Shown: positions 1,769 through 46,602 of the stretch, one piece after another
Layout of the letters: every line of letters starts with the position of its first letter
Position numbering within the stretch: position 1 is the stretch's first letter
Origin: a virus
Taxonomy: Duplodnaviria; Heunggongvirae; Uroviricota; Caudoviricetes
Length of the DNA stretch: 64,000 nt
Virus record (IMG/VR): IMGVR_UViG_3300021963_000025
Span: 64,001-128,000 of that record
Reading direction: 5' to 3' (one strand)
Position numbers and translations under genes: made by a program
The notes under the pieces: model-generated
What the model saw: only the letters and a program-made list of their open reading frames with translations
The model's database searches: none
What the model was told of the DNA's origin: nothing

Positions 1769-2224
1769 ATGAAAAAAATACTTTATATTGACCTTGATGG
1801 CGTAATGGTAGACTTAGAGAGTCATGCAATCCGTAGACATGGACCAAAGGCAATTGAAAAACTTGGTATGTTAACATCAGTTGACAAAGAACTTTTTGAA
1901 GAACCAGAGCCGATGCCAGGTGCTATCGAAGCAGTTAAATACCTTTGGGATAAATTTGACATTTATTTCCTTACAACTGCCCCTTGGAGCAATGCAAACA
2001 GTTATTCATCTAAACGCAGATGGGTACAAAAGAACCTTGGCAAATATGCGCACAAGAGACTAATTATATCACATCGTAAAGACCTTTGTATTGGAGACTT
2101 CTTAATCGATGACCGTCCAAATAATGGTGCTTCCGAATTCCGTGGAGAATGGATTCAGTTTGGACAGCCAGGATTTGAGGGGTGGCCACAGATTATAAAC
2201 TATCTTGAAAATCTTGATATATAA
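1769..2224 (+). CDS. 5'(3')-deoxyribonucleotidase (NT5C family, HAD)
   Basis: YIDLDGVMVD, FLTTAPW, HRKDL..GDFLIDDR motifs. Confidence 0.9.
   Translation: MKKILYIDLDGVMVDLESHAIRRHGPKAIEKLGMLTSVDKELFEEPEPMPGAIEAVKYLWDKFDIYFLTTAPWSNANSYSSKRRWVQKNLGKYAHKRLIISHRKDLCIGDFLIDDRPNNGASEFRGEWIQFGQPGFEGWPQIINYLENLDI
2216..2223 (+). promoter_or_regulatory. Late-type promoter motif GATATATA ahead of leader array 1
   Basis: Recurrent GATA(T/A)ATA motif 25 nt before the ATG at 2248. Confidence 0.6.
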
Positions 2225-2247
2225 AACAAACATAATATATTAATACT

Positions 2248-2745
2248 ATGAAAAAAGTAAAACTATTTGAGGAATTTATCAATGAAGGAAAATCATTCCA
2301 ATTCTCTTTTGACTACAATACTGATGAAGATGATGTAGAATATATCCAAGACATTTTAATGAATGCTGGAGTAGATGCAATTGCAGAGCCTGGTACATTT
2401 GACGATGAAATGATAGTTAAAGCCCCAAATGCAGTTGAATTGCGTAAGGCTAAAAAAGCAATCCAGGCAGATGGATTTGAAATTAACGAATCGACACAAA
2501 TGCCTAAACCTATGAAAGGTTTAAAGTACGAAGTAGTTAAAGCAAAAGATTTAAAAATTGGTGACGAAATATCAGATGGACCAAAAGAAACTTGGGAAAT
2601 TTCTAAAGTTGTTTCTATTAATCCTGTTAAATTAGAAGTTGTTGAAACTATCGTTCCCGAAGATAATCCAAGATATAAAGCACCAGGAACTCTTATTAAC
2701 ATTGATTTTGGTCCATATGCAATGATGTTTAAAATAATCAGATAA
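2248..2745 (+). CDS. Leader-bearing putative virion internal protein, two modules
   Basis: MKKVKLFEEFINE leader; internal FEINE-S site. Confidence 0.75.
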   Translation: MKKVKLFEEFINEGKSFQFSFDYNTDEDDVEYIQDILMNAGVDAIAEPGTFDDEMIVKAPNAVELRKAKKAIQADGFEINESTQMPKPMKGLKYEVVKAKDLKIGDEISDGPKETWEISKVVSINPVKLEVVETIVPEDNPRYKAPGTLINIDFGPYAMMFKIIR

Positions 2746-2747
2746 TT

Positions 2748-3173
2748 ATGAAACATACTCAATTATTTAATGAGTTCTTAAATGAATCTCAGAACTTTAT
2801 CGGCGAATCCAGTATTGGAGACATTCATATTATGGCTCAAGAGGCAGATTCTTTCACTGCATTCCGAAAAGAATTCATGGACGAATATGGCAAACCAAAA
2901 TCAGTTAAAGAACTTAAAAGTTTAGAGGCTTGGTTGCAAGAAATTTGGAATGAAAACCAAACTAATGAAAGTGAATTACTTGAAGCTGAAAAGTTTCAAG
3001 CAATAGACATTCCTAAAAGTGCAGCTGCTGGTATAGAACGTATGATTAACACAATTGGAATTAATCAAGCTATTCGTGATGTATTAGGATTTGATAAAGT
3101 TTATCAGAGTTCTGTTGGTATTAACAAGAATAACATAGTTATAACTATTACACAAAAACCAAGAAAAGGATAA
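2748..3173 (+). CDS. Leader-bearing putative virion internal protein
   Basis: MKHTQLFNEFLNE leader; internal QTNE-SELLE-A. Confidence 0.75.
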   Translation: MKHTQLFNEFLNESQNFIGESSIGDIHIMAQEADSFTAFRKEFMDEYGKPKSVKELKSLEAWLQEIWNENQTNESELLEAEKFQAIDIPKSAAAGIERMINTIGINQAIRDVLGFDKVYQSSVGINKNNIVITITQKPRKG

Positions 3174-3451
3174 TGAAACACATTAAACTACACGGAGAAT
3201 TTATTAACGAGGCCAAATCTGAAGTATATCCAGAAGAGGTTCAAAATATAATTGATGGACTTATTGGTATTGGTATGAAAAAATATCAATTAGCAGCTCA
3301 TACTAACTATGGAGTTTGGTTTATTGAATTACCATTTACAGCAATACATATTGGTAATTTAAAGAAAATTGAAAAAATTATACCAGACTTCAACATTGGA
3401 ATCTGGAATGGTTATTCAGGACTATCAATTAGAACAAATATATCTGTATAA
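3173..3451 (+). CDS. Leader-bearing putative virion internal protein
   Basis: MKHIKLHGEFINE leader. Confidence 0.75.
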   Translation: MKHIKLHGEFINEAKSEVYPEEVQNIIDGLIGIGMKKYQLAAHTNYGVWFIELPFTAIHIGNLKKIEKIIPDFNIGIWNGYSGLSIRTNISV

Positions 3452-3885
3452 TGAAAAAGGTAAAACTATTTGAAGAATTTATCAGTGAAACATTATCGAT
3501 GGACGCTGTTTATATTCACCAAATCACTGGTTCAGGCCAGGACGCTGCACAGAACTTTATTGATGATAATAATATAGATTCGGCAAAATTAGTAGCATTT
3601 CTTAAACAACATAAAGACTCAAAAGAGAAATATGATGTTAGAGACATGATTAATGGCACTAATAAGAATAAAAGATTTATGAAGCAATTCATGAATGAGT
3701 CAATGAAGGCAAAAGACTACTTCAAAGACCCAATGCACCTCGCAGACGCTAAAGGATGGGTCATAAATCTTAAGCTATCTGATGATGAGATAAAAGCCAA
3801 GATAAAATCAGTAATGAAAGATCCGTCTAAATTTAATAACTTAATGGACGCAATGACTGACGAATTAAACCTAAAGTGGAAATAA
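3451..3885 (+). CDS. Leader-bearing putative virion internal protein, two modules
   Basis: MKKVKLFEEFISE leader; internal KQFMNE-S. Confidence 0.75.
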   Translation: MKKVKLFEEFISETLSMDAVYIHQITGSGQDAAQNFIDDNNIDSAKLVAFLKQHKDSKEKYDVRDMINGTNKNKRFMKQFMNESMKAKDYFKDPMHLADAKGWVINLKLSDDEIKAKIKSVMKDPSKFNNLMDAMTDELNLKWK

Positions 3886-3887
3886 TT

Positions 3888-4442
3888 ATGAAGCACATAA
3901 AACTATACGAAGAGTTTGTTAATGAACTTGAAATCCCGTCGAACCGTTGGATTGAGCTAGATTTAAAACAAATCGATGCAGCTGGTATGGAGAGTATATG
4001 GACTATGTACACTGATACGTATTTAGGTGCGGGTATGGACCTATCGGCAAATGATTGGCCCGAAATGCAGGCAAAGTACAAAGCAACTGCCCTAAAAGAC
4101 GTTGATGGTGACCATTTTGCGGATGCATTTATTATTTATAAGCCTACCAGATGGGGTAACAAAATCGCCCTATTAGGAACCAATGGTAAAAAAGAGGCAA
4201 AATCTGATGTGGTTAAAAAATTACTGCAATTGGTTAACACTAAAGGTTGGTTTATCGAAGCAAGTCTGAAAATGGAGGAAATCCTCTCTAAGTCAGGAGC
4301 TCCAGTTATAATGGATGAAGAAATGATTAAGGATGTAGTAGGAGCAGATAAAAAACCTGAATTTACAGGCGATGGATATTACACCCGATTCCTATCAAAG
4401 GCAGGTAAAAGAATAACAAAAAGAATATACGGTAAAATATGA
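3888..4442 (+). CDS. Leader-bearing putative virion internal protein (start corrected to 3888)
   Basis: MKHIKLYEEFVNE leader begins at ATG 3888. Confidence 0.75.
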   Translation: MKHIKLYEEFVNELEIPSNRWIELDLKQIDAAGMESIWTMYTDTYLGAGMDLSANDWPEMQAKYKATALKDVDGDHFADAFIIYKPTRWGNKIALLGTNGKKEAKSDVVKKLLQLVNTKGWFIEASLKMEEILSKSGAPVIMDEEMIKDVVGADKKPEFTGDGYYTRFLSKAGKRITKRIYGKI

Positions 4443-4693
4443 AAAAAGTAAAATTATTCGAGGAGTACATCCAAGAGGCGACTACTTCATGGAGCAAAAT
4501 GATGAAAGGTGTTAAAGACGGAGAAAGCGGACCTTGGACAATAGTTGCTATTGAAAACAATAAGGTTGTTGGACAAAAGAATATAGACATTAGAGACCTT
4601 TTACCTGCTGCATTCGAAGAAATGCGTAAAGAATTTCCAAGAGCCAAGTTTCATATTGAAGATAGTACAGGCGGAGTTGTTTGGAATATATAA
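4439..4693 (+). CDS. Leader-bearing putative virion internal protein
   Basis: MKKVKLFEEYIQE leader. Confidence 0.75.
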   Translation: MKKVKLFEEYIQEATTSWSKMMKGVKDGESGPWTIVAIENNKVVGQKNIDIRDLLPAAFEEMRKEFPRAKFHIEDSTGGVVWNI

Positions 4694-4699
4694 ATTGTT

Positions 4700-5125
4700 A
4701 TGGGAGTTATAATTAAAAATGCTATTAATAAAGAGGAACATGAAGCGCTACTTCGAGGAGATACTTCATTTGTTCATATAGCAGGAGAAACTAATCCAAC
4801 AATTTTAAAGATTATTGGAATTCTTAGAGAGCATTTTGATTTTGTAATTAAACCAGAATCATATTGGAGAATAGAACATACTCCTAATGGACATGATTGG
4901 CATATTGATACTGGAACAAATAACCACATGATGTGGTGCCAAGTTGGATGTTCAATATTGTTAACATCAACCAAAGAATTTGAAGGTGGTGAAACCTTTT
5001 ACAATAAAGAGGAACCTTACACAGTGGAACGAGACCTTTATGACATTGCAGCACATACATCGTCTGAATGGCACATGGTTAAACCACATACAGGAAATAG
5101 AGTAGTTCTGCTACTTTTTATTTAA
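4700..5125 (+). CDS. 2OG-Fe(II) oxygenase (P4H-like)
   Basis: WHID (H-x-D), FEGGETF, WHMVKP..GNRVVL motifs. Confidence 0.75.
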   Translation: MGVIIKNAINKEEHEALLRGDTSFVHIAGETNPTILKIIGILREHFDFVIKPESYWRIEHTPNGHDWHIDTGTNNHMMWCQVGCSILLTSTKEFEGGETFYNKEEPYTVERDLYDIAAHTSSEWHMVKPHTGNRVVLLLFI

Positions 5126-5139
5126 TAAAAAACAAAGAC

Positions 5140-5460
5140 ATGAAAAAAGTAAAATTATTTGAGCAGTTTGTCAATGAGGCAAAAGATGCTACTAGAGATG
5201 AATTAATGGACCTAATGGAAACCAAATACAAAATTAAATCTGTTAGACCTTCTGAAGATTTTGACGGTCAAACTGAAGGAATTTGGATTGCAGCTGATAA
5301 TGAGGAAGAGTTAAGTGGTAATAAAATATTTGACTACTACAATAAAAGTGCTAAATACAAAAATGGCGTACTTAAAAGTGTAGTAGATGCTGTAGAGAAA
5401 AAAGGTTGGTGGTTTTCATGGAACGACCCAGGAACAATGATGTGTTGGCCAAAAAATTAA
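5140..5460 (+). CDS. Leader-bearing putative virion internal protein
   Basis: MKKVKLFEQFVNE leader. Confidence 0.75.
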   Translation: MKKVKLFEQFVNEAKDATRDELMDLMETKYKIKSVRPSEDFDGQTEGIWIAADNEEELSGNKIFDYYNKSAKYKNGVLKSVVDAVEKKGWWFSWNDPGTMMCWPKN

Positions 5461-5466
5461 TAAGAT

Positions 5467-5808
5467 ATGAAAAAAGTAAAATTATTTGAAGAGTTCATTG
5501 ATGAATCTGCGACAGTTCTTCACCAACACGATTTCTTAGGAATGCAGGCTCAAGCCGCAAATATGTCTAGGGAGGAATGGATTGCTCACTACGGATCACC
5601 TGAAATTGGCTCTGGAATTGATGAATCAAAGAAAGGTATTTACACAGTCTATTTTGAAGACAGGGATGGAGAAATATGGGATTGGGACGTTCCAGCTAGT
5701 TCACCTGAAGAGGCAATTAAACTAGTACAGGACGGAAAGGCCCTAGGACCTTACGACCAAACACTTCCAAGAGGAGCCCGTAACTTTCACGCAAAGTTTT
5801 ATAAATAA
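5467..5808 (+). CDS. Leader-bearing putative virion internal protein, two modules
   Basis: MKKVKLFEEFIDE leader; internal GIDE-S. Confidence 0.75.
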   Translation: MKKVKLFEEFIDESATVLHQHDFLGMQAQAANMSREEWIAHYGSPEIGSGIDESKKGIYTVYFEDRDGEIWDWDVPASSPEEAIKLVQDGKALGPYDQTLPRGARNFHAKFYK

Positions 5809-5835
5809 CCCTACATACAACATAGTAAAACCCAC

Positions 5836-5883
5836 ATTGGGTCTTTTTAGTTTGATATATAATATAGACTAAAAAGACCCAAT
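5836..5883. promoter_or_regulatory. 16-bp inverted repeat with the late motif GATATATA in its loop
   Basis: attgggtctttttagt (5836-5851) pairs with actaaaaagacccaat (5868-5883); GATATATA at 5854-5861. Confidence 0.8.
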
Positions 5884-6790: not shown

Positions 6791-9211
6791 ATGCCACAAG
6801 ATAATTTACAAAATTCTGGTGAAAGAGGACCTCAGGGTAAATACAATCCATTGTATCCTGGAGAGCTTGGAAGAGCACTATTTCACCCAGAAATGGATTA
6901 CAACTTGGACCTTATTGGACAAGTAATTCATGGATATAGAGTGATGGGAACCAACAATGATGGAACCATTAATATCAATGATGATGTTGATAAGGTACTT
7001 AAATTACACTTGGTAACTGTTGATGATACTGCCCTAATATTAGCTGGAGCTGAAATTGGTGACTATGTTTGGATTCCAATTGAAGTTACGCAGAATTTAG
7101 GACCTCAAGGATATCAAGGTCGTCAAGGTGCACAAGGTCGTCAAGGTGCGCAAGGAGCACAAGGAGCGCAAGGTAGACAAGGTACACAAGGAAATCAAGG
7201 AAATCAAGGACCTTCGGCAGTAGGTACACCCGGATCACCTGGAAGTGCTGGACCTCAAGGAGCTACAGGACCTCAAGGGGTACAAGGTGCTACCGGACCA
7301 CAAGGAACCCAAGGTTTAGTTGGAAATTACGGTGGAGACAGTTTACGATTCTTAGTTGGAAATTATAATGGAAGTTCTGCGGCTTCTGGAGCAATTACGT
7401 TCAGTAACATACTTACTCCACCTGCACCGAACCTCGATATTATTGTAAGTAATTTTGATGCAGATGGCGCTAACACATATGCTTGGTTTACTAGTATGGT
7501 TTCACAAGGAGGTCGTATAAGAATTACCAGACCAGGTAGAACAACAGAATACATAGACTACACAATAGATAGTGGAAGTACGGGAGGAAATACAACGCTT
7601 AACCTATCATACGTTGGAGGGACTATAACTGCAATCGGATCGGTATGGCCAGTAGGTACTGAACTTATAGTGTCCTATGCAAAGTCAGGAGAACAGGGAA
7701 ATAAAGGTGGCCTCTTATATGAATATAACGGAGGAATGTCTTTTAATGATCCGGATGCTTCTTTAACCACAAGTATTACGTTTAATGAAATTACTGAGGA
7801 TGGCGCTAATGTTGGAGACTACATAAATAATTGGTATGTTGGAGGAACTCTTTTTATACAGAGTAATACCAATGGAGATTCAACGTATACGATGTTCAAC
7901 GTTACAGGAGTAACAATTGATTCAATATTTCCATCAGGGTTTCAATACATCGTTGATGTTAATTATCTTGGAGGTAGTGCACCTACAACTGGTGAAATAT
8001 GCGTTGCTAATTTTAGTCCGGCAGGACCTCAAGGAGCCCAAGGTGTTCAAGGAGCACAAGGAGTCCAAGGTGCTCAAGGTCGTCAAGGAACACAAGGACC
8101 TCAAGGAGTTCAAGGATCAGTAGGAACTGGAACAACAGGACCTCAAGGAGACCAAGGACCTACAGGTTCAGGTTCATCTTTTACGTATGCAAAAACTCTT
8201 TTTGTTGACCCTAATGGAGATGACAGTATCGCTATTCCCGGAAGATTAGACAGACCGTGGCAACATATATCCGAAGCAATCCAATTTCTAGAAGCAGATT
8301 CTAGAGTTGGATGGACTATTTGGGTATTTCCAGGTGAATACACTGAAGACACCCCGTGGACATTTTTTGCTTCTAGCCAAACAACAGTTAAATTAAATGG
8401 AGGTGTTTCTATAGTATTTGACCTAAAGAATTATTCTGAACATGTAATAGAAGGAAATAATGATTTTTCAATAATTGGAGACGATAGAAGTATTGGCGGA
8501 GGTTTACCTAATGTAAGTATTACAACAAAAACAAGTAGCGAAGTGTTTGCTCCACCTATAATGTTAGTTAAATTATCTAGAAAAGATAAAAAATGTAGAA
8601 TTTCTAATGTTTCCCTTATAGGAGGTGAAAGTAAATATGCATTTATGTTAATAAATGCAGATAATCAAATCATACACGTTACAGATTGTTACATATACTC
8701 ACTGGAAAATAACATTAGAGTCTTGGACGAAACTCTTATTCCAAAGGTAGCAATCACTAATAGTATTCTTGTAAATGGTGATATAAATAATGCAAATCAA
8801 TTTGCAAATATAGTTACTAGACAAAATTACACAGTAGATCCAGGTGATACAAATTTTAATGGTATTTGGAACTTTGAAAATGTAAGATTTGTTATCCTTT
8901 GTATTAAGGCAGGTTCAATAGCTTATACTGAAAAGGGTCACATATTTTCAAATAATCAACAATCAACCAAAGGAGGTATGTATGTTACGTTCAGTAGTTG
9001 TAAATTTTATTGTTCATGGTGGAAATCAATTCAAGGAAATTGGGCTGATGAAGGAACTGGTGGAATAAACTTTATTGAAATAGTGGGAACAACTCTATCT
9101 AATGCAGATGCAAGTTACTGGACAAGTGGAGTTACATGGACTGAACTTGGAAATATAGGTTTTATAGTTAATCGAGCTGATATAATCGATCCAACCATAT
9201 TACTATTATAA
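6791..9211 (+). CDS. Collagen-like tail fibre/whisker protein
   Basis: G-x-Q triplet blocks; N-terminal LFHPEMDYNL anchor-like motif; beta-rich C-terminus; TATAAATA at 6771. Confidence 0.8.
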   Translation: MPQDNLQNSGERGPQGKYNPLYPGELGRALFHPEMDYNLDLIGQVIHGYRVMGTNNDGTININDDVDKVLKLHLVTVDDTALILAGAEIGDYVWIPIEVTQNLGPQGYQGRQGAQGRQGAQGAQGAQGRQGTQGNQGNQGPSAVGTPGSPGSAGPQGATGPQGVQGATGPQGTQGLVGNYGGDSLRFLVGNYNGSSAASGAITFSNILTPPAPNLDIIVSNFDADGANTYAWFTSMVSQGGRIRITRPGRTTEYIDYTIDSGSTGGNTTLNLSYVGGTITAIGSVWPVGTELIVSYAKSGEQGNKGGLLYEYNGGMSFNDPDASLTTSITFNEITEDGANVGDYINNWYVGGTLFIQSNTNGDSTYTMFNVTGVTIDSIFPSGFQYIVDVNYLGGSAPTTGEICVANFSPAGPQGAQGVQGAQGVQGAQGRQGTQGPQGVQGSVGTGTTGPQGDQGPTGSGSSFTYAKTLFVDPNGDDSIAIPGRLDRPWQHISEAIQFLEADSRVGWTIWVFPGEYTEDTPWTFFASSQTTVKLNGGVSIVFDLKNYSEHVIEGNNDFSIIGDDRSIGGGLPNVSITTKTSSEVFAPPIMLVKLSRKDKKCRISNVSLIGGESKYAFMLINADNQIIHVTDCYIYSLENNIRVLDETLIPKVAITNSILVNGDINNANQFANIVTRQNYTVDPGDTNFNGIWNFENVRFVILCIKAGSIAYTEKGHIFSNNQQSTKGGMYVTFSSCKFYCSWWKSIQGNWADEGTGGINFIEIVGTTLSNADASYWTSGVTWTELGNIGFIVNRADIIDPTILLL

Positions 9212-9966: not shown

Positions 9967-10266
9967 ATGAATTTAGTATTTCAAGGTACAATTGACGTAT
10001 CAAGTGGAACTCAAATAGATTGTGCGTATGACAATATGCTGATTTCCTTAATGGTTATCAATAACCAAACCGGAAATTATACTCTTACGGTTAAAAGACT
10101 AGAAACTGAGGCCGGAGGTTTAGAAACACTTCTTTATAAATTTCTATTAGACAATGGAGATTCTGTTAGGGACACAACCCAATATAAAATGTCTAAAGGT
10201 GATTATATTCATCTGGAATCTACTCAAGCCGACACAACTTATTATATCTCAGCAGAAGTAGAATGA
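9967..10266 (+). CDS. Small beta-rich protein, probably structural
   Basis: Follows GATAAATA (9947); overlaps the fibre gene start. Confidence 0.55.
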   Translation: MNLVFQGTIDVSSGTQIDCAYDNMLISLMVINNQTGNYTLTVKRLETEAGGLETLLYKFLLDNGDSVRDTTQYKMSKGDYIHLESTQADTTYYISAEVE

Positions 10267-12830
10267 TACAAAGACAGGACAAATATGGAAATACCAGCAC
10301 AGACCTTGGTCCAGTATTAGTTTATGACAAATATGGTAAACTAAAAAAGATAGGAGGATCCGGAGGTTCAGGAACACAAGGTCCGCAAGGACCTGCAGGT
10401 GGACCACAAGGGGTACAAGGTGCTCAAGGATTTCAAGGTCGACAAGGTGTTCAAGGAGATATTGGTGCTCAAGGGTATCAAGGAGACCAGGGATATCAAG
10501 GTGCTCAAGGTAACATAGGAGATCAGGGAACTCAAGGAGTTCAAGGTGATATTGGACCTCAAGGACGTCAAGGAACTCAAGGCGTTCAAGGTAACCAAGG
10601 AGTTCAAGGTAACCAAGGAGTACAAGGAGCATTGGGACCTCAAGGAGCCCAAGGAACTCAAGGTGTTCAAGGTGTTCAAGGAATACAAGGAGCATTAGGA
10701 CCTCAAGGTGCCCAAGGAACACAAGGTGTTCAAGGTGTTCAAGGTAACCAAGGAGTACAAGGAGCATTAGGACCTCAAGGAGCCCAAGGAACTCAAGGTG
10801 TTCAGGGAGTTCAAGGAACCCAAGGTAACCAAGGAGTTCAGGGAGACCAGGGAAATAGTGGTATCTCAGCAGGTGCCGTTTATTACTTTAATCAATCTCA
10901 ATCTTCTGATGTTTCACCATATAAGGTATTAGCAACACAACCAAATGGAGCACAACAAATAGTTACAACTAATTTAACAGGTTCTCAACAAAATGTACTA
11001 GTTTCACAATTTTTAACACCTCAATTAGGTTTTGCTGTAATTCCAGGAGGAACCCAAAGATTCCATTTTCATTATCTTAAACAGGCTTCAAATGATAGTA
11101 TTGAGACTTATGTAACAATACAATTAGCCAATTCTTCCGGGGTTGCAATTGGACCAGTTATTCAAACAGGTACTGATTTAATTGGATGGGTTGATGCATC
11201 CACTCCAGTAGAAATTACATTAGATTTAACCCTATCTACAACAGCAATTGATCCGACAAATCGAATGATCGTTAAGATATATTTAATGAATAATGATAGT
11301 AATGCCCATGTTGTTAATTGGTACACCGAGGGAAATCAATACTATGCATTTGTTATGACGTCTGTTGGTGTTGTTGGAAATCAAGGAGCTACAGGACCTC
11401 AAGGTTCTCAGGGAACTCAAGGTGTTCAGGGAGTACAAGGAGTCCAAGGTGATATTGGCCCTCAAGGTGTAATAGGACCGCAAGGTGCACAAGGAACGCA
11501 AGGAGTTGCTGGAGCCCAAGGTACAACAGGAGCCCAAGGACCACAAGGAGTTCAGGGAACTCAAGGAGTTCAAGGTGTCCAAGGAATTCTTGGTAACTTT
11601 GGAGGAGATTCTGTTTTAATGACAATGAATGGTTACACTGGCTTCTCCGGAGGTATGGCACCCGGTATTATTGAATTTTGGAATGGTACAAATCCTGCAA
11701 CAACTACTCAATTAGCTATTAGTAATACTGATGCACAAGGAGGTAACATTACTAATTGGAATAATGCCCTGGTAAGTAGTACTAATCCAATTAAAGGTAG
11801 TTTAAGAATAAGTGTTAATGGTTCTTCAAATAATTATGCAGATTATCAAATAAATTCAGGAACCAATAGCACAGGTCGTGAAGTATTGGATGTTACTTAT
11901 ATAGGAAGCAATGGTACTATATCTACAGGAGATTCTTTGGTTGTTTCTTTTGCTAGAAGTGGAGACTTTGGTCCTCAAGGACCTGGTGCATCAATTGTTG
12001 CTAGTGACTATGTAATGAAAGCAGTTAAAGGTGGTAGTACGCAAACAATATTAAACAACAATAACAATCAAGTTATAACATTTGTTGATGATTTTGACCC
12101 TCAAAACTGGTGGACTTCTAATAAGTTTCAACCAACAATCACAGGTTATTACATTTTGCAACTTGCAGTATGGTGGGATGCTGGAGCCATTACAACTAAC
12201 CAAACAAATATACAGTTGCAAAAGAATGGTAATACTCAAGTGGCTATTCAACAAACTCAAATTGTTACTGGTGCAGGATACGGACAAGAAATTGATACTA
12301 TAGTATATTTTAATGGAACTACTGATTATGTTGAAGCTACGGCATACACTGGAAATACAACATCACAAAATATAAATGGTACCAATACAGGTACATGGTT
12401 TACCGCATCACTAATAACAAATGGTACAGGACCTCAAGGGTTCCAAGGACCTACTGGAGTAACACCTTCAATTCCAAGAAGTTTTGGAATTACAATGGAC
12501 GGTGCAGGTACGGTTATATCAACAGGAATCCAAGGAGACATACAAATACCATATTCAATGACTATTGACTCTTGGAGCCTTATTTCCGATGTTGTTGGTT
12601 CAATTGTGGTAGATGTTTGGAAAGATACTTACGCAAATTATCCAGCAACTATTGCAGATACTATAACAGGTTCAGCAAAACCAACAATATCTTCTAGTAA
12701 TAAAGCCCAAAGTTCAACACTAACAGGATGGACAACATCTGTTAATGCTGGCGATATAATAAGATTCAATGTCGATTCAGTTTCGACAATAACAAAAGCA
12801 ACCCTAATAATACAAGGCTTACAAGTATGA
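10263..12830 (+). CDS. Collagen-like fibre protein with a C1q-like domain
   Basis: Long G-x-Q tracts; ITGYYILQLAVWW..IQLQKNG..VYFNGTTDYVE C1q-like segment. Confidence 0.8.
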   Translation: MIQRQDKYGNTSTDLGPVLVYDKYGKLKKIGGSGGSGTQGPQGPAGGPQGVQGAQGFQGRQGVQGDIGAQGYQGDQGYQGAQGNIGDQGTQGVQGDIGPQGRQGTQGVQGNQGVQGNQGVQGALGPQGAQGTQGVQGVQGIQGALGPQGAQGTQGVQGVQGNQGVQGALGPQGAQGTQGVQGVQGTQGNQGVQGDQGNSGISAGAVYYFNQSQSSDVSPYKVLATQPNGAQQIVTTNLTGSQQNVLVSQFLTPQLGFAVIPGGTQRFHFHYLKQASNDSIETYVTIQLANSSGVAIGPVIQTGTDLIGWVDASTPVEITLDLTLSTTAIDPTNRMIVKIYLMNNDSNAHVVNWYTEGNQYYAFVMTSVGVVGNQGATGPQGSQGTQGVQGVQGVQGDIGPQGVIGPQGAQGTQGVAGAQGTTGAQGPQGVQGTQGVQGVQGILGNFGGDSVLMTMNGYTGFSGGMAPGIIEFWNGTNPATTTQLAISNTDAQGGNITNWNNALVSSTNPIKGSLRISVNGSSNNYADYQINSGTNSTGREVLDVTYIGSNGTISTGDSLVVSFARSGDFGPQGPGASIVASDYVMKAVKGGSTQTILNNNNNQVITFVDDFDPQNWWTSNKFQPTITGYYILQLAVWWDAGAITTNQTNIQLQKNGNTQVAIQQTQIVTGAGYGQEIDTIVYFNGTTDYVEATAYTGNTTSQNINGTNTGTWFTASLITNGTGPQGFQGPTGVTPSIPRSFGITMDGAGTVISTGIQGDIQIPYSMTIDSWSLISDVVGSIVVDVWKDTYANYPATIADTITGSAKPTISSSNKAQSSTLTGWTTSVNAGDIIRFNVDSVSTITKATLIIQGLQV

Positions 12831-19141: not shown

Positions 19142-20323
19142 ATGGCAAATTTAGGAGATTTTAAAACAAGATTTGAAATGGCAGTTAATCAGGCCAATGC
19201 AGATCAACAAATAAATGAATCGATGGATTCACCTCTAAATGAGGCAAAAATTAATACAGAATCAATGCAAGGGGAGGTTGATAACCCAGGATCTATTCAT
19301 GGAAATATGGCCCTAATTGATGCGCTTACAAAAGCTAAAAAAATTGATGATTATAAAACTTTTGCAAAAAACTATCCAAATGGAATTCCAACAACTTTTA
19401 TCTTAAATCTTTTTGCATCACTGAATCCAAAAGAGTCAGAAGAACTTGCTAAAGATTTATACTCAAAATCAACTCCAAAAGACTTGAACGCTGGAATGTA
19501 CTCAAATAGAAATTCAGTACTTGGAAAGTTATTTGACCAAAAGCCAACTGGACTTGGAAAGGGAGAAGCACTTATTGCATGGTTAATTAGAGGTGCAGTA
19601 ATTCAAGGTGGAACAGAGAGTTATGATGTTATCATTAATGGAAAAGATACCTTTGAGGTTAAAGATTACAGTAAAAATAATGCAGCAATCCGAGCAGGAG
19701 TAAAATCAAAGGTTAGTAACTTTGAATTTTGGAGAGAGATTAGCGATACACTATCAAGAATCGATAAATTGACAGGATATTCTGCTGGAAAACCTAAATT
19801 TGATATAAGCAAATACTTCTCTCCGGAGATGACAACAGCAGCAAACTACCTAATGGGAAGAAGAGGTACTATCATGTCGGGTGAATGTAATAAAACCGAT
19901 TTTGCAAATATTAACAAATTCTATGAAGAGGCTCATAAGGTTGAAAATAATCTACATGGGTATACCAATGTGATTTTAAGAGGACCAAATGCAGCTCCTA
20001 TCGAGTTAAGTATTGACCTATTAGACCCTGCTGCGGTTAAAGGAGATACAATTACCTTTCATGTTGCAAAAACCGACCAAACTGCAACGTACATTCTAGC
20101 AGAATTGAAGCGATTAAAATATGTTAGAAATCCAAAAGACTTAGAAGTGGATATGCAAAAAGCGGTTGACCAAATACATTCAGGACTTGTGTATATCGTA
20201 TTCCGTAAAAACACAATAAATATTACAACAGATTTTGTACCAGCTCAGGTATCAACATCATCTCTCTACTTTGTAGAAAGAAACATTAAAGACCCTATAA
20301 TAGACACTACATTAGATGACTAA
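19142..20323 (+). CDS. PD-(D/E)xK nuclease-like protein with N-terminal INE/LNE sites
   Basis: GKGEALIAW...SYDVIING..FEVKD; QQINE-S, PLNE-A near the N-terminus. Confidence 0.5.
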   Translation: MANLGDFKTRFEMAVNQANADQQINESMDSPLNEAKINTESMQGEVDNPGSIHGNMALIDALTKAKKIDDYKTFAKNYPNGIPTTFILNLFASLNPKESEELAKDLYSKSTPKDLNAGMYSNRNSVLGKLFDQKPTGLGKGEALIAWLIRGAVIQGGTESYDVIINGKDTFEVKDYSKNNAAIRAGVKSKVSNFEFWREISDTLSRIDKLTGYSAGKPKFDISKYFSPEMTTAANYLMGRRGTIMSGECNKTDFANINKFYEEAHKVENNLHGYTNVILRGPNAAPIELSIDLLDPAAVKGDTITFHVAKTDQTATYILAELKRLKYVRNPKDLEVDMQKAVDQIHSGLVYIVFRKNTINITTDFVPAQVSTSSLYFVERNIKDPIIDTTLDD

Positions 20324-20498: not shown

Positions 20499-21089
20499 AT
20501 GAAACATGTTAAACTATACGAACAATTCGTAAATGAGGCTAAAAGTTACAGTATCAAAGGAATGATAAAAAAGGCAACTACTGATAAAACAGACAGATTG
20601 CCATACGTAACACTTACATCAGATGTTGACCGATTTATTTCAAGATGGGCATATAGACAAGGTTTAGATGAAATTGATTTTACTCCAGAAATGAGAGCCG
20701 AATTTGAAGACGGAATCCGAGCAGCAGGCTATGATGTAGTTGATGCTAAAGACATTGAAAAGCAAAAAGTATTCAGTGCATTGATGAAGGACCTAAAAAA
20801 ATCATGGGATTGGGATGTTAAATTGACTCCACATAAAGATGAAAATTATACCACAAACTCTAGACCCCTGATTTATATTGAACTTAGAGGCGGAAAAGCA
20901 GGAAAACTAGAGAATGGAGAACCGATTATCGATCTTAATATTGGTAACAAAATGCCTTACTATTTCAATGGCACTAGTGAACAATTCAGTACTTGGTTAC
21001 ATGACAGAGGATTTGCAATTATTAGTACTAATGGTCAAAAATTCATTACTGAATTAAGTGCTACAAGAGGAGAACCATCATACTACTAA
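20499..21089 (+). CDS. Leader-bearing putative virion internal protein
   Basis: MKHVKLYEQFVNE leader. Confidence 0.75.
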   Translation: MKHVKLYEQFVNEAKSYSIKGMIKKATTDKTDRLPYVTLTSDVDRFISRWAYRQGLDEIDFTPEMRAEFEDGIRAAGYDVVDAKDIEKQKVFSALMKDLKKSWDWDVKLTPHKDENYTTNSRPLIYIELRGGKAGKLENGEPIIDLNIGNKMPYYFNGTSEQFSTWLHDRGFAIISTNGQKFITELSATRGEPSYY

Positions 21090-21971: not shown

Positions 21972-22499
21972 ATGAAACATGTAAAACTGTTCGAACAATT
22001 CATAAATGAAGGTTACATGGATAACTTTAAAGAGTATGAAAAGGAATTCAAAAAGAGAGGTTTGAATCGACACAGTGAAGGATGGTCAGAAGGTGGTTAT
22101 GAGGACATTTGGTATACAGATTTCGAATTAGGCCGTTTTGTTGTTAGTTTCTGGGGACTAAATATGGCCCTAACATCTGACATGTCAAAAACCCAACGTA
22201 ATAAACCAGAATACGAGTACAATGTATATTTCGAACCTTTCCCAAAATACAAAATGAAATTATTTGGTTTGATTAAAACTCAAGAGCGTCAATTAGGCAA
22301 ACAAATCGACTTTGCTAGAGGTTACATCGATTTTTCAGAAGGTAAATTTACAACAGATGATAAAACATTTATGAAGTACCTATTTAGTGTAGTTGATGAT
22401 GGATTAGAAAAATCTAAAGAAATTTCTAAAATTGAATACCTTTCTTTTGAAGACAGCGCAAAATGGGCACGTCCAGCAATCGATAATGTAAATAGATAA
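21972..22499 (+). CDS. Leader-bearing putative virion internal protein (start corrected to 21972)
   Basis: MKHVKLFEQFINE leader. Confidence 0.75.
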   Translation: MKHVKLFEQFINEGYMDNFKEYEKEFKKRGLNRHSEGWSEGGYEDIWYTDFELGRFVVSFWGLNMALTSDMSKTQRNKPEYEYNVYFEPFPKYKMKLFGLIKTQERQLGKQIDFARGYIDFSEGKFTTDDKTFMKYLFSVVDDGLEKSKEISKIEYLSFEDSAKWARPAIDNVNR

Positions 22500-22507
22500 A
22501 ACCAATT

Positions 22508-22915
22508 ATGAAACCTATAAAACTATTCGAAGAATTCCTTAATGAGTCCCAAAAACAGGATGCTGCTATGCAAAAGGTGGAAGCACTCCCTAAAGGGTCA
22601 ATATTTGATGATGCAAAACGAATAGACTCTATATTCAAAATTAACAATCGTACTTGGAGTGAAGTGGTTCAAGCCTGGGAAGAGAATGAAAAATCTGCAA
22701 AAAGCAAAACAATAAACCCTAAGGACGTACAAATAACCCAAAGGAATATACAATCAAGCAAGGTAGAGGAAATGATATACAGAAAGGGTCCTCTTAAAAC
22801 CATTAATGTTATTGAATTCCCAGAAGGAATGGTAATCCCCGATGGACACCACAGACTTACAACAGCATGGGCCCTAGGAGAAACCAAACTAAAAGTTAAC
22901 TACGTAAAAGCATGA
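22508..22915 (+). CDS. Leader-bearing ParB/Srx-like domain protein
   Basis: MKPIKLFEEFLNE leader; INPKDVQITQ..VIPDGHHRL..A..LG motif. Confidence 0.7.
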   Translation: MKPIKLFEEFLNESQKQDAAMQKVEALPKGSIFDDAKRIDSIFKINNRTWSEVVQAWEENEKSAKSKTINPKDVQITQRNIQSSKVEEMIYRKGPLKTINVIEFPEGMVIPDGHHRLTTAWALGETKLKVNYVKA

Positions 22916-23430
22916 AACATATAAAACTATTTGAAAACTTCCTAAATGAAGAAACCCAATTCCCAGCACAGTTTGGTATAGATGAACCAGTAGCTTTCAA
23001 AACCTCTCAGCAGGACCCTGAAAGATGGGGAACCGTAGTCAAAGTATCATTCACTAAAGCAAAAGTTTGGTATGATATACTGGATGATTATACAGCAACC
23101 GTAATTAGTGATGTAGATTCAGTATGGGTAAAATCATTAGCAGGAAAACCCCTACCAGAATCCTTCCTAAATGAAGGGGAAGATGCAGTAACCCTAAACG
23201 TAACTATTAGTAATATTGACCAATCTACAGCAGACGATTTCTTAAAGATGTTTGCATTCATGGAATATTGTGGAAACGTAGGAACTGCCCGAACGATGCA
23301 GGCTTTCTTTGATGGTGATGGACACTTCAGACCCCGTATCAAAGTTGAAGGCATCGACCTACAAGATATCGACCTAGGCCTAACTGATGAAGACAAGAAA
23401 ATCGACCTAGACTTGGACTTCGGAGCCTAA
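22912..23430 (+). CDS. Leader-bearing putative virion internal protein, two modules
   Basis: MKHIKLFENFLNE leader; internal ESFLNE-G. Confidence 0.75.
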   Translation: MKHIKLFENFLNEETQFPAQFGIDEPVAFKTSQQDPERWGTVVKVSFTKAKVWYDILDDYTATVISDVDSVWVKSLAGKPLPESFLNEGEDAVTLNVTISNIDQSTADDFLKMFAFMEYCGNVGTARTMQAFFDGDGHFRPRIKVEGIDLQDIDLGLTDEDKKIDLDLDFGA

Positions 23431-23482: not shown

Positions 23483-24098
23483 ATCGAGCCCGGCACGTCC
23501 GACAACCCCGTCCCCCACAATAAAAAACCGATAGAAATAAAAATCTAAAACAAAAACATCTAAGACACCTTATAAATCTATAACAGATACAAGATAATCT
23601 CTATATAGATAAGGATATAAACCCCCTAATAGAACCCCTATAAGGTATAATACTCCCCTCCCTGACCCCCGTTACTGTCCAGTTTTTAAGCCCTCAATTG
23701 CCCTTCGTACCCGTACCCGTAGGGGCCAATCCCCAGTCAACCAGGTACCCCAGTTCTACCTTTCTTAACAAAAGGATATATACCCACACTCCAAGCCCAG
23801 TAGGTCTCTCAATAGTTCCCTTCATGTCCCTCTAAGGGCCTTAAACCTCTCGTCGAGTTGGGTCACCCTCCGAGGCACTCCGGACCCTCTTTTCACTCCT
23901 GGGCACCTCCAAAACCATCCACCAATCCCAGTTCCTACCAAACGGGCGTTTGGATGCACCAAGTGCTAGTGCCCCTGCGGGCAAAACAATTCTGCCTTGC
24001 CCGGCCATTGGTCTACCGCGAAACGCACGAAATCCGGGAACACCACACTCCCGGAAATCGCTATCTAATTAAGGCAGTTTCGGGTGCCGGCCGTTATA

Positions 24099-25199
24099 TT
24101 ATAATTCTACTACCGTCTTTAATTCTTCTGGTATAGCGTCCTTGTCGAAACCGAATAATTTGTCGAAGGCATTACTTTCCCCAGCTAGAGCCTTTCTCTC
24201 TTCAGCTAATACCTCGTCATTAAAAAGGTCTCTTGTATATCGGCCTTCGTCAAAGGAGACTCCTTCTGATAATTCGTAATATAGTTTTTTACCTACCTGA
24301 CCGGTACGGTTTTTAGAGAACTCCATGAATCTTCTACCGCTATTTTCAGAACCGTCCCAGTCCAACATCATCATCGCGGTCGTCATGTGTTTCAGTTTAT
24401 TAGAACCAACGAAGTTACCACCTTTAGATAATTGCAGGATAGTTACGAAGGTTGTGTAAGTCTTAGTCTTATTACCACCTTTATTATGCTGGGTCATTAG
24501 GTCTAGGAACCACTTTTCAGTTTTTGAACGGGTCATGTTACATTCCTCCTTGATAGTGTCATTAACCTCTGTATAAGAGTCGGTTAATACTACGTCCCAT
24601 CCTTGGTTAAGTACACCTTCAATGACCCCTTTTGGACAAGACTCTGTATAGTCAGAAAGGAATAAGATAGGTAATTGTCCCCAGTGTGGGAAACGTTTTA
24701 AGTAACGGGCCATATCTATCTGGTTCATTTCAGCAGAGATGAATAGGACACGTTTTCCAGATGCATGTAGTTTAGAAAGTAATTCTAATAGCACTGTAGT
24801 TTTACCGACACCAGGAGCTCCAGCAGCCATTATATTTGTTCCAGGTAGGAAACCACCTTCAGTTGAACAAAACTGGTCGAAGATAGTTCCAGTTGGAAGA
24901 CTGGTGAATAGGGAATCATCGATATTTAAGTCGTCCAATTTGGTAAGTGTTACCTCAACTGGAGCACAAGGGTTAGAGGTTGATTGGGATGTTGAGGTTC
25001 CGTAATCGTTATTATAGTCTTTGTTACTTGTCCATCGCCCAGTTTCGGTGATGTTGATAACACGGTTTGCGTCTTGATTAGATATCCATTCGAATTTAGA
25101 GTGACCTGCTTCGATTAGGATGGTATTTGTAGGTGTCTTAGTGTTAACCAATAAGAAGTGGTTGTCTTGAGGGCGGATGATGTAAGATTGTCTGTTCAT
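24099..25199 (-). CDS. RadA/Sms-like RecA-fold ATPase
   Basis: AGAPGVGKTT, ISAEM, VVLTDS, QLSKGGNFVGSNKLKHM, FSKNR motifs; lacks Zn finger and Lon domains. Confidence 0.8.
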   Translation of the reverse strand: MNRQSYIIRPQDNHFLLVNTKTPTNTILIEAGHSKFEWISNQDANRVINITETGRWTSNKDYNNDYGTSTSQSTSNPCAPVEVTLTKLDDLNIDDSLFTSLPTGTIFDQFCSTEGGFLPGTNIMAAGAPGVGKTTVLLELLSKLHASGKRVLFISAEMNQIDMARYLKRFPHWGQLPILFLSDYTESCPKGVIEGVLNQGWDVVLTDSYTEVNDTIKEECNMTRSKTEKWFLDLMTQHNKGGNKTKTYTTFVTILQLSKGGNFVGSNKLKHMTTAMMMLDWDGSENSGRRFMEFSKNRTGQVGKKLYYELSEGVSFDEGRYTRDLFNDEVLAEERKALAGESNAFDKLFGFDKDAIPEELKTVVEL

Positions 25200-29232: not shown

Positions 29233-30422
29233 TTAACCTACAGTAATACCAATAATATCATCAGATGCAAGTAGGACTACAGGTGCATAGGGTCCTATAG
29301 GACTATTGACCCTTAACACGGTGGGCCAGGTCTGCTGGGTGCATTGAGTCCCCTGGGGAGTTGCTATAGCGGCCAGGTCTATGATTTTTCAAAGGGCTCC
29401 AGGGGAGCAGAGCATGGCCTTCCATCACTCTCAGTACTTCCTAACTAATATTGACCTATTGAAAAATGTGTTTCAAATATGTCAACGAATTATCCCTGGC
29501 CGGAAATAGTGCCCTCCGAGCATTGACCGACCCAATGGTCCTCAAATGGTCCTCCGATGGTAGCCAATGGTCCAACTGGGACCCTATAAGCGCTCAATGT
29601 TGCCCAGACCGAAAAAATTACCCGGTTCCGGAGTGGCCAAAAGACCAATTGCGACCGATAGAATCGTTACCACCGTTACAAGAAAACCCTAAGGACTATA
29701 ATTAACCAATAAGAGGGTACTCAATTCCCTATGGTTGGCTCAGATTGACCTGAGAGTACAGTGAAATACTTAGAGAATCTTGAAACTAAATGGTCCTATG
29801 AGAATATAAGAGATGTCCATGTCTCAAAGGTGAAAGGTAGGGCCATTCACCGAACTCTCACCTCTCTGAGGTACTCCAAGCCTTCAAAGGTCCTCAAAGG
29901 TCCCAAAAATATTCCAGTAGAAAAAAATAAATTGATCCCTATCCAAATAGTCCCAAAGGGGGCGGGGTGGGGGCGTGCTTAAGGGTTCTATTAGCGCTAT
30001 GTATATTATAGTATACAAAAGGTTGAATTGGTATTGATAATGTATATTATAGTATACAAAATCCGTTATTAATAAGAGGGATAGGAGGGACACACCCACT
30101 CTGATACTCGATAGGGGGAATCAGAAACATGTGACGACCAATAGTCCAATAGGTACTGTGTCAGGCACGAAGTGTACTTTGAGGGCTAGGATTGGTCCGC
30201 CCAATGGTTCTCAATGTACTTCAAAGAACCTCAACGGTTCAATCGTTCTGGTAGATTTTTTCCATTTTTTCGTGATTGAAACCCAAATTTTCCCACACCT
30301 ATTGGAGGGTGCACTTGGGTAGGGAATTACAGAAATAAAAATTTTCATCGAACCCAAAGAATCTTCAAGTCTACCCTGAAACAAATGGGAATTACTCAAT
30401 ATAAATCTAAAATAAGAATACT

Positions 30423-46119: not shown

Positions 46120-46602
46120 ATGGCAAGTATTAAAAAATTCGAGGAATTTGTTTCAGAAATGGACAGAGCCGAGGAAATAGAACAAGAAGTTGTTGACAAA
46201 GGAACTCCTGAAGTAAAATCTGAAGAGGAAACTGAAGAGGAAGCAGAAGAAGTTCAAGGAGTAGATGAGGCTGGAGAAGCAATCATCGGAGATGACGCTG
46301 AAAAAATTAAAGAGGAAACTAAACCAGTTGCCGACATGTTAAAAGCATGTTACGAAGCGGTTATTAAAGAGGCTAAAACTTGGGAAGAAGATGCGCATGA
46401 CGAACATACCGTAGAAACTTATATGGCTGAAAACGCATCACTTGTTGCTGGTATGGCAGCTAATTGTGTTAAAGAGATGAAAGAAGATATGGCATCTGAA
46501 GCATACGAAGCATGTTTAAATAAAATGAGCGAGGCTTTCACTAAGAAAATTAATGAAAGCAAAGAAGCTACTGTCGCTACTGACGCAGAAGATATTAAGT
46601 AA
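46120..46602 (+). CDS. Acidic leader-bearing protein (putative prohead core/internal protein)
   Basis: MASIKKFEEFVSE leader; Glu-rich; KKINE-S near the C-terminus; GATATATA at 46084. Confidence 0.65.
   Translation: MASIKKFEEFVSEMDRAEEIEQEVVDKGTPEVKSEEETEEEAEEVQGVDEAGEAIIGDDAEKIKEETKPVADMLKACYEAVIKEAKTWEEDAHDEHTVETYMAENASLVAGMAANCVKEMKEDMASEAYEACLNKMSEAFTKKINESKEATVATDAEDIK

Follow-up and report, generated by a model that had tools for sequence, protein, structure and literature searches.

A 13-residue N-terminal leader shared by unrelated phage proteins is a likely capsid-targeting label

A 64,000-nucleotide stretch of phage DNA (hereafter the window; bases 64001-128000 of the 199,669-bp IMG/VR virus contig IMGVR_UViG_3300021963_000025) encodes numerous otherwise unrelated proteins that begin with variants of the same 13-residue leader, eight of which are lined up in a single gene array. 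This leader is likely the lineage's own version of phage T4's capsid-targeting sequence, i.e., a label removed by the head protease from proteins that stay in the head and are most likely injected. Positions are those of the window unless given as contig positions, which count along the whole record, and leaders are written with a slash before residue 14 that marks the putative cut position. The contig is linear with 34% G+C and a CheckV completeness estimate of 74%, and a greedy call of open reading frames (ORFs) yields ca. 269 genes, 255 of them on the + strand.

In the proposed mechanism, the leader would form a short N-terminal helix that draws late proteins into the scaffolding core of the prohead as it assembles, where a gp21-type prohead protease (Peptidase_S77) would cut after Glu13 of [IVL]-x-E. 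The same putative site, which mostly reads x-N-E with Ala, Ser, or Gly behind it, joins small modules of ca. 60-90 residues inside many tagged proteins, and because module junctions share the cut site, one leader could load a string of modules that the protease then separates. The released proteins, some of them probably enzymes, would remain in the head and most likely enter the host with the DNA. We infer targeting, cleavage, virion retention, injection, and an anti-defense role from the comparisons of genes and genomes laid out below.

Selection acts on a leader peptide carried by one gene in nine

The initial annotation had described an array of eight genes with a common start, and all eight ORFs (starting at 2248, 2748, 3173, 3451, 3888, 4439, 5140, and 5467) indeed begin with M-K-[KH]-x-[KQ]-L-[FYH]-x-[EQ]-[FY]-[IVL]-x-E. 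The array itself comprises nine genes, one of which (4700-5125) is leaderless. Five of the seven additional copies listed at that time (20499, 21106, 21972, 22508, and 22912) are equally strong, while those at 46120 (MASIKKFEEFVSE) and 60513 (MNKFKTFGQFINE) are weaker and retain the core F-x-[EQ]-F-[IV]-x-E.

The profile scan of the full genome that had been called for was run with a position-specific scoring matrix (PSSM) trained on 13 leaders and applied to all 3,133 possible starts of the contig. It retrieved 26 ORFs with scores of 17.8-47.9, all on the + strand and with an ATG start, in a bimodal distribution whose highest score outside these ORFs was 3.7. A looser core motif occurs 39 times in the 58,337 residues of + strand ORFs, with 24 of these occurrences within the first ten residues. 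Both the gap between scores of 17.8 and 3.7 and this N-terminal bias exclude a chance origin of the leader. Beyond the 26 ORFs, the looser motif picks up around five shorter leader variants on the contig, among them:

MKTFLDYIAE, contig position 153972
MKTFNEFIIDE, contig position 63376
MNFNQFLNE, on a 701-aa protein
MKTKILNFNQFITE, on a 429-aa protein

With these variants added to the 26 ORFs, the contig holds ca. 30 tagged genes, i.e., roughly one in nine (ca. 11%).

Selection acts on the leader peptide. The synonymous variation reported earlier holds across the 23 strong copies, with hardly any change at codon positions 1 and 2 and no constraint at position 3 (Phe TTT/TTC 12:11 and 13:10, Glu13 GAA/GAG 14:9, Leu6 CTA/TTA 13:8). 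Conservation ends sharply at base +39 with none beyond, and the 45 bases upstream of the ATG are merely A-rich without a conserved Shine-Dalgarno sequence. A repeated DNA element or mobile cassette as the origin of the shared start is ruled out because third codon positions vary and flanks are unconserved. Glu13 is invariant (23/23 strong copies), position 11 almost always holds I, V, or L (one Ala), and 18 of 26 copies have A, G, S, or T as residue 14. The bodies behind the leader are unrelated, as had been stated, with no mutual BLASTP match below E=0.02.

A T4-like head module with a gp21-type protease

According to the initial annotation, a genome without a gp21-like protease would have spoken against a capsid-targeting leader, but such a protease is encoded at contig 199029-199373, where a Peptidase_S77 match (PF03420, 45.6 bits vs. 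a cut-off of 27) lies inside an ORF truncated at the contig end. Immediately 5' of it are the portal (phrog_213, E 8.6e-58) and then a 116-aa acidic leader-like protein (charge ca. -19). This order of portal, small protein, and protease is that of T4 genes 20, 67/68, and 21, with the small protein at the place of gp67/gp68. The capsid gene is absent from the contig and lies beyond its end.

Ten related IMG/VR contigs keep the same order of genes, and the small protein bears a strict leader in all ten. On the related contig L080, the head module extends to a 644-aa protease-scaffold fusion and a capsid protein of the Gp23 family (Pfam E 8e-42). In at least 12 relatives, the N-terminus of the Gp23-type capsid protein reads M-A-x-L-[IL]-N-E/[AS], i.e., it has the same ending as the leader, and the protease domain of the relatives is followed by R-V-N-E/[AS] at the domain boundary. 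A complex prediction for the protease domain and the 84-aa leader protein 4439 returned a score of 0.00 ("no answer"), which speaks neither for nor against binding.

The long region fused to the prohead protease resembles a coiled-coil scaffold rich in DQSIQY[ST]E-type repeats, both in L080 (L080:1938-3872) and in the corresponding ORFs (606-831 aa) of G001-G005. G003 and G004 additionally carry a short S77-like ORF of 132 aa.

Leader and head genes also share an upstream motif, GATATATA, with 29 copies on the + strand of the contig and none on the - strand; 25 of these sites are 12-42 nt before a gene start. It precedes the protease gene, several very large virion-like ORFs, array 1, and eight other leader genes, and the protease, capsid-protein, and leader-core genes of relatives have [AG]ATATATA in front of them. 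Judged by these positions, GATATATA is probably the late promoter of the lineage (the T4 late promoter, for comparison, is TATAAATA). Since the motif is common to leader, protease, and capsid genes, late co-expression of the leader genes with the head genes is plausible. Its window positions are:

618, 897, 2216, 5854, 16078, 18554, 23775, 46084, 50474, 60501, and 61329, all + strand

Leader genes of the window

The genes of array 1 (2216-5845) are tightly packed, with stop and start codons that overlap or sit 1-7 bases apart:

2216-2223, + strand: promoter-like motif GATATATA, 32 nt 5' of the first array 1 gene
2248-2745, + strand: leader gene 1, 165 aa, MKKVKLFEEFINE/G; two modules with an internal INE/S at residues 82-84
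2748-3173, + strand: leader gene 2, 141 aa, MKHTQLFNEFLNE/S; internal LLE/A around residue 80
3173-3451, + strand: leader gene 3, 92 aa, MKHIKLHGEFINE/A; no Pfam or PHROG family match
3451-3885, + strand: leader gene 4, 144 aa, MKKVKLFEEFISE/T; modules A and Z joined by MNE/S at residues 84-86
3888-4442, + strand: leader gene 5, 184 aa, MKHIKLYEEFVNE/L; predicted GNAT-fold body
4439-4693, + strand: leader gene 6, 84 aa, MKKVKLFEEYIQE/A; no family match
4700-5125, + strand: leaderless gene, 141 aa, H-x-D ... H ... R pattern; the only array 1 gene without a leader
5140-5460, + strand: leader gene 7, 106 aa, MKKVKLFEQFVNE/A; paralogue of the N-terminal module of the relatives' head-module leader protein
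5467-5808, + strand: leader gene 8, 113 aa, MKKVKLFEEFIDE/S; weak match to phrog_23854
5827-5845, + strand: terminator-like hairpin closing array 1, with a fresh GATATATA at 5854

The DNA of array 1 has neither a near nor a distant match among GenBank phages. Leader gene 1 has no Pfam or PHROG match, and an ESM Atlas look-up gave nothing usable. By BLASTP, leader gene 7 matches proteins of L068, L061, L072, L111, and L080 (E 1e-24 to 3e-12), and in L080 this module is fused to a homologue of the portal-adjacent protein.

Read by eye, the H-x-D ... H ... R pattern of the leaderless gene is reminiscent of small 2-oxoglutarate (2OG)-Fe(II) dioxygenases/oxygenases; the gene has no Pfam or PHROG match. 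Directly before the array lies a gene for an NT5C-type 5'-nucleotidase (1769-2224, + strand). Past the array, large collagen-repeat tail-fiber proteins are encoded at 6791-9211 and 10263-12830 on the + strand (phrog_5073, E 1e-29 and 4e-59, respectively), and because these two genes sit between arrays 1 and 2, both leader arrays flank fiber genes.

Array 2 and the two weaker copies are as follows:

20499-21089, + strand: array 2 leader gene, 196 aa, MKHVKLYEQFVNE/A; L073 homologue with 81% identity
21106-21618, + strand: array 2 leader gene, 170 aa, MKHIKVFEDFANE/A; internal leader-like EQFVNE/A around residue 109
21972-22499, + strand: array 2 leader gene, 175 aa, MKHVKLFEQFINE/G
22508-22915, + strand: array 2 leader gene, 135 aa, MKPIKLFEEFLNE/S; body with a DGHHR ParB/Srx-like motif
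22912-23430, + strand: array 2 leader gene, 172 aa, MKHIKLFENFLNE/E; internal SFLNE/G around residue 86
46120-46602, + strand: weaker leader MASIKKFEEFVSE/M on a very acidic 160-aa protein (net charge ca. -28); GATATATA 36 nt upstream
60513-61316, + strand: weaker leader MNKFKTFGQFINE/S on a 267-aa protein; GATATATA 12 nt upstream

Pfam and PHROG scans of all 15 leader proteins of the window returned no informative family, and none of the bodies was placed in a Pfam family. The individual hits were all weak and include a ParB-like match of gene 22508 (phrog_1033, E 6.6e-4; its L123 homologue is 67% identical), a match of residues 103-146 of gene 22912 to phrog_10928 (E 1.9e-9), and a Dit_C match of gene 60513 below the cut-off. 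The L095 homologue of gene 60513 (36% identity, E 6e-50) bears a strict leader.

Several observations concern the surroundings of these genes. Upstream of array 2, a 393-aa protein (19142-20323, + strand) starts with MANLGDF and contains QQINE/S, PLNE/A, and INTE/S within its first 40 residues. This could be a head protein whose propeptide is longer and cut several times; it has no Pfam or PHROG match. Directly past array 2, the DNA at 23600-24200 is C-rich with 50% G+C (vs. 34% for the genome) and without a convincing ORF, and a second G+C-rich patch lies at 29300-29600. Scans of the window including 23600-24200 for tRNAs and for Rfam families (at gathering score) found nothing. Gene 60513 is flanked by an S1-domain protein and an Amidoligase_2 protein (59202-60416 and 61368-62660, + strand).

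Many tagged proteins are strings of modules joined at the putative cut site

Genes that are separate in the window are beads of single polyproteins in relatives. The polyprotein P0158 (358 aa) consists of the leader followed by residues 1-82 of leader gene 1 (its first bead, 86.6% identity), residues 14-80 of leader gene 2, residues 8-84 of leader gene 4, another module, and residues 56-144 of leader gene 4. Residues 1-80 of leader gene 2 recur in P0194 and P0228, and P0194 combines the leader with this module, residues 8-88 of leader gene 4, and the body of the gene at contig 184721. Overall, alignment A4 shows at least ten architectures built from ca. seven modules, with modules A and Z of leader gene 4 recombined with four other modules in relatives, and all junctions read x-N-E/[AS]. 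The polyprotein junctions coincide with the internal sites of leader genes 1 (INE/S, 82-84), 2 (LLE/A, 80), and 4 (MNE/S, 84-86).

A broader test covered 413 proteins and scored where the mature N-terminus of one aligned inside another, which gave 59 distinct junctions. An [ILVMFTA]-x-E motif lies within three residues at 56 of them, compared with 11.9 +/- 2.9 (maximum 20 in 200 trials) for random internal positions. Structure models agree with this layout in that leader and junction segments are of low confidence and flank confident domains. The AlphaFold model of leader gene 4 has a predicted local distance difference test (pLDDT) score of 61.6 overall that falls below 50 at the leader boundary (residues 11-15) and the junction (residues 81-95), and the model of leader gene 5 (gene 3888; pLDDT 88.8) does so at residues 1-12. 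Going by these models, leader boundary and junction segments are likely flexible. The strings of modules joined at a common site are an addition to the initial annotation, whose account of leader plus body is incomplete here.

Enzyme-like cargo behind exchangeable leaders

Structure prediction and fold search had been proposed for every body. For gene 3888, they yielded a GNAT fold, while gene 3451 (leader gene 4) is covered by a model of only moderate quality. All top 50 Foldseek matches of gene 3888 in the PDB are GNAT acetyltransferases (best E 2.5e-4, template modeling (TM) score ca. 0.5), and matches among AlphaFold database clusters reach a TM score of 0.7, with some named N-acetyltransferase. 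The predicted structure thus has a GNAT-fold body, though no Pfam match was found at E<0.01.

Gene 3888 has 229 homologues, which start with MKHIKLYEEFVNE/LEIPS in its own clade. Many others start with MIRLTEILNE/LEIPS, MISLSNILNE/LEIPS, or MIKLNDILKE/FEIPS, and on two contigs with such alternative leaders the adjacent, unrelated gene wears the same 10-residue leader, MI[KR]LxxIL[NK]E. One cargo family therefore wears clade-specific labels, each common to unrelated neighbors. One of these two contigs, L133, has cyanophage marker genes. On it, the MIKLRNILNE and MIKLNDILKE genes (L133:9678-10549) form a + strand islet among - strand genes that encode a heme oxygenase, a bilin reductase, and a 593-aa radical-SAM protein. 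The earlier description of an interchangeable set is borne out by these homologues and by at least 97 unrelated body families found behind the leader.

Few of the bodies belong to recognizable families. Among 80 cluster representatives, these are CHAP, GNAT, methyltransferase, nucleotidyltransferases of the Pol-beta and cytidylyl types, ATP-grasp, Peptidase_C25, DUF5661, and DUF5824. The gene at contig 2478 matches Acb1, the phosphodiesterase family directed against the cyclic-oligonucleotide-based antiphage signaling system (CBASS), with 31.5 bits (cut-off 27), and many leader-bearing Acb1-like proteins exist in metagenomes. As far as family matches can tell, the recognizable bodies are enzymes, which fits the idea of effectors.

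The leader in related huge phages

The closest protease relatives of the contig are uncultured huge phages, i.e., LR756500 (462 kb, 57% identity) and others of 634-735 kb, followed by Lak megaphages (46%). In LR756500, 14 genes start with MKYIKEYEEF[IV]xE (control pattern 0). A degenerate DNA pattern of our leader retrieved at least 120 stretches from IMG/VR. Among the matches listed, 160 of 166 start ORFs of at least 50 aa, unconstrained positions show preferences for H3, I/V4, N12, and A/S/G14, and 186 tagged bodies fall into at least 97 BLAST clusters, of which 64 have a single member. Peptidase_S77 is encoded on each of the five large leader-bearing contigs that were tested, and these carry 2-21 leaders each, with no hits for reversed-pattern controls, and two of them are complete (482 kb and 256 kb, the latter being G002 with 16 leaders). 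A profile search of a 5.8-billion-protein set with a leader-anchored alignment (A3) was dominated by body families, mainly Acb1-like, and essentially all of the 119 matches listed bear the leader or a close variant.

This leader was not found in Lak-A1. Five genes of that phage (MK250016.1; at 22451, 34240, 184235, 189728, and 304508) start with MNKNIKxLxExLF[DN][ED] (control 0), one of them next to the prohead protease, in what looks like a separate, Lak-specific leader.

The contig's gene content, with T4-like core genes, Clp, and DnaJ, matches the description of moraphages, a group of aquatic phages with predicted Flavobacteriia hosts that commonly encode ClpA and DnaK/DnaJ (PMC12619734). 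That paper mentions no leader and contains none of the terms "leader", "N-terminal", and "internal protein", and we found no description of a leader of this type in huge or jumbo phages in the literature searched.

Counter-evidence and alternative explanations

Several points weigh against reading the leader as a capsid-targeting sequence. Its likeness to the T4 leader spans only about seven residues (7-9), which is too short for a homology statistic, and in 8 of 26 copies residue 14 is K, E, L, or M and thus not small. As a fragment, the contig lacks the capsid gene, its end truncates the protease ORF, and the leader of its own portal-adjacent protein ends in T-N-S without the Glu. The number of GATATATA sites exceeds the mononucleotide-shuffle expectation for the + strand only ca. 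1.7-fold (29 vs. 17 +/- 4), so that strand and position bias is the stronger argument for this motif. Mature bodies are mostly acidic or neutral and lend no support to a DNA-binding role. A cultured relative was sought through the 3888 cargo, which matched only three uncultured huge phages. Finally, with ClpP in five of five leader-bearing related huge phages tested and a ClpC-like ATPase in the window, co-occurrence cannot separate this reading from one of the leader as a Clp tag.

The strongest rival accepts targeting and cleavage and disputes the effector role. The tagged proteins would be assembly material such as scaffold-like filler or internal peptides, either degraded or simply taking up room in the head, and would not act in the next host. 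Many bodies are indeed small helical modules without an enzyme signature, some are as acidic as T4 gp67/gp68 (ca. -28 for 46120 and ca. -19 for the portal-adjacent protein), one tagged family sits inside the head module itself, and the internal sites would cut the proteins into small pieces. However, Acb1-like, GNAT, CHAP, methyltransferase, and nucleotidyltransferase cargo makes sense only in the host cell, and a diversity of at least 97 body families suits an arms-race repertoire better than a structural need. We therefore consider this alternative unlikely.

Rather improbable is that the leader is a tag for a phage Clp system of ClpC-like ATPase, ClpP, and DnaJ that serves unfolding, timed degradation, or chaperone-assisted handling. 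In its favor are the ClpC/ClpA-type AAA+ ATPase at 31547-33517 (+ strand; phrog_4871, E 1e-241), the ClpP of the five relatives, and the ClpA and DnaK/DnaJ common in the moraphage lineage, which this phage resembles (PMC12619734). Yet a Clp tag would leave unexplained why the leader ends in the T4 protease motif, why it heads the gene that separates portal from protease, why L-I-N-E/[AS] opens the capsid protein, and why modules are joined at the same site. Analogous leaders also occur in cyanophage-like contigs and in T4, where the capsid-targeting role is established.

The conserved start could also be an expression device, i.e., an A-rich, weakly structured 5' coding region or a favorable nascent peptide in a Bacteroidota-type host, in line with the A-rich first codons (ATG AAA MAY RTN AAA) and the A-rich upstream regions without a conserved Shine-Dalgarno sequence. 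We give this little credence: it is the amino acid sequence that is conserved, with third positions free to vary, and most strongly so well beyond the start, at residues 6-13 (L-F-E-x-F-[IVL]-x-E), ca. 240 other genes of the contig do without the leader, and the terminal part of the motif recurs at internal module junctions, where initiation is irrelevant. A recognition sequence for a modifying enzyme such as a radical-SAM protein, like those of ribosomally synthesized and post-translationally modified peptides (RiPP-like), is hardly credible despite the Radical_SAM gene near leader genes in the cyanophage-like L133, and it is contradicted by the absence of the enzyme from the contig (no PF04055 match above the cut-off; the sole match, at 13.8 bits, contains stop codons) and from the complete relative G002 (no Radical_SAM match above the cut-off).

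Implications of a proposed capsid-targeting leader

If the capsid-targeting reading is true, relatives with genomes of 250-480 kb have expanded the T4 scheme, with dozens of cargo genes in each genome and cargo families in the hundreds. The leader and the x-N-E rule would then predict from metagenomes which proteins travel in the virion and provide a list of candidate first-strike effectors, e.g., Acb1-like, GNAT, CHAP, and methyltransferase enzymes. The junction rule marks natural domain boundaries in many proteins without an assigned function, and the leader could serve as a packaging tag for the engineering of Bacteroidota phages.

A bolder version, to which we assign a chance just short of even, sees a plug-and-play cargo system in a widespread lineage of large and huge phages that probably infect Bacteroidota. 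Here, the label and the protease site would load any small module, modules would be shuffled exactly at that site into bead-like polyproteins for the protease to separate, and at least a tenth of the proteome would consist of pre-made injected effectors including anti-CBASS (Acb1-like) and protein-modifying enzymes. In this case, the injected proteome of uncultured phages might be readable directly from sequence.

Comparison with known systems

The internal proteins of T4 (IPI, IPII, and IPIII) and Alt are classic counter-defense and takeover factors, and their packing principle is textbook T4 biology. The capsid-targeting sequence of IPII and IPIII is removed by gp21, according to PMC3012670 and PMC5694885 (citing Mullaney and Black 1996), and the internal proteins of T-even phages have diverse bodies with only the leader conserved (PMC3012670). 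In the T4 genome (NC_000866), MKTYQEFIAE is found twice, and it has in common with our leader the M-K start and an aromatic-[QE]-E-F-I-x-E core ([FY]-[QE]-E-F-I-x-E). T4 gp24 starts with MAKINELLRE/S, which the capsid N-terminus of our relatives resembles, and Alt starts with MELITELFDE/D. The two systems thus share a short leader on unrelated proteins that ends in [ILV]-x-E and a head module in T4 order with portal, core protein, S77 protease, and Gp23 capsid protein (the latter in relatives). They differ in that the leader has 10 residues in T4 but 13 here, and in the amount of candidate cargo, with ca. 30 tagged genes per 200-kb fragment (ca. 11%) vs. three internal proteins and Alt, i.e., ca. 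ten-fold more. The operon-like arrays of tagged genes, the many multi-module polyproteins with a putative cut site at every junction, and the protease fused to a scaffold also set this clade apart, as does its relationship to huge phages infecting Bacteroidota.

In the giant phages phiKZ, 201phi2-1, and SPN3US, a gp21-type protease cleaves numerous internal head proteins behind x-E, frequently at multiple positions of one protein, and their propeptides are thought to direct incorporation into the prohead (PMC5694885, PMC7411985, PMC10052503). Unlike the one common short leader seen here, these propeptides are long (ca. 80-160 residues or more) and protein-specific, and the preferred residue at P3 is A, S, or G there but I, V, or L here. 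Combinatorial reuse of modules has not been described for these three phages.

Polyvalent proteins of phages and conjugative elements combine unrelated effector domains including GNAT and enzymes that degrade nucleotide signals in one polypeptide whose delivery together with the DNA is assumed (Iyer et al. 2017, PMC5512222; PMC7824862). By contrast, the beads described here are small, carry one N-terminal putative capsid label, and are separated by a head-protease site. Polyvalent proteins are very large.

The huge phages of the moraphage, Lak, and Mahaphage types (PMC12619734; LR756500-LR756504, MK2500xx) are the closest protease relatives of our contig but differ in the leader itself, with MKYIKEYEEF[IV]xE in LR756500 and apparently MNKNIKxLxExLF[DN][ED] in Lak-A1. 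Set against the T4 principle, what is new in the genes of the lineage studied here is the longer leader, the greater number of candidate cargo genes, their operon-like arrays, and the combinatorial polyproteins.

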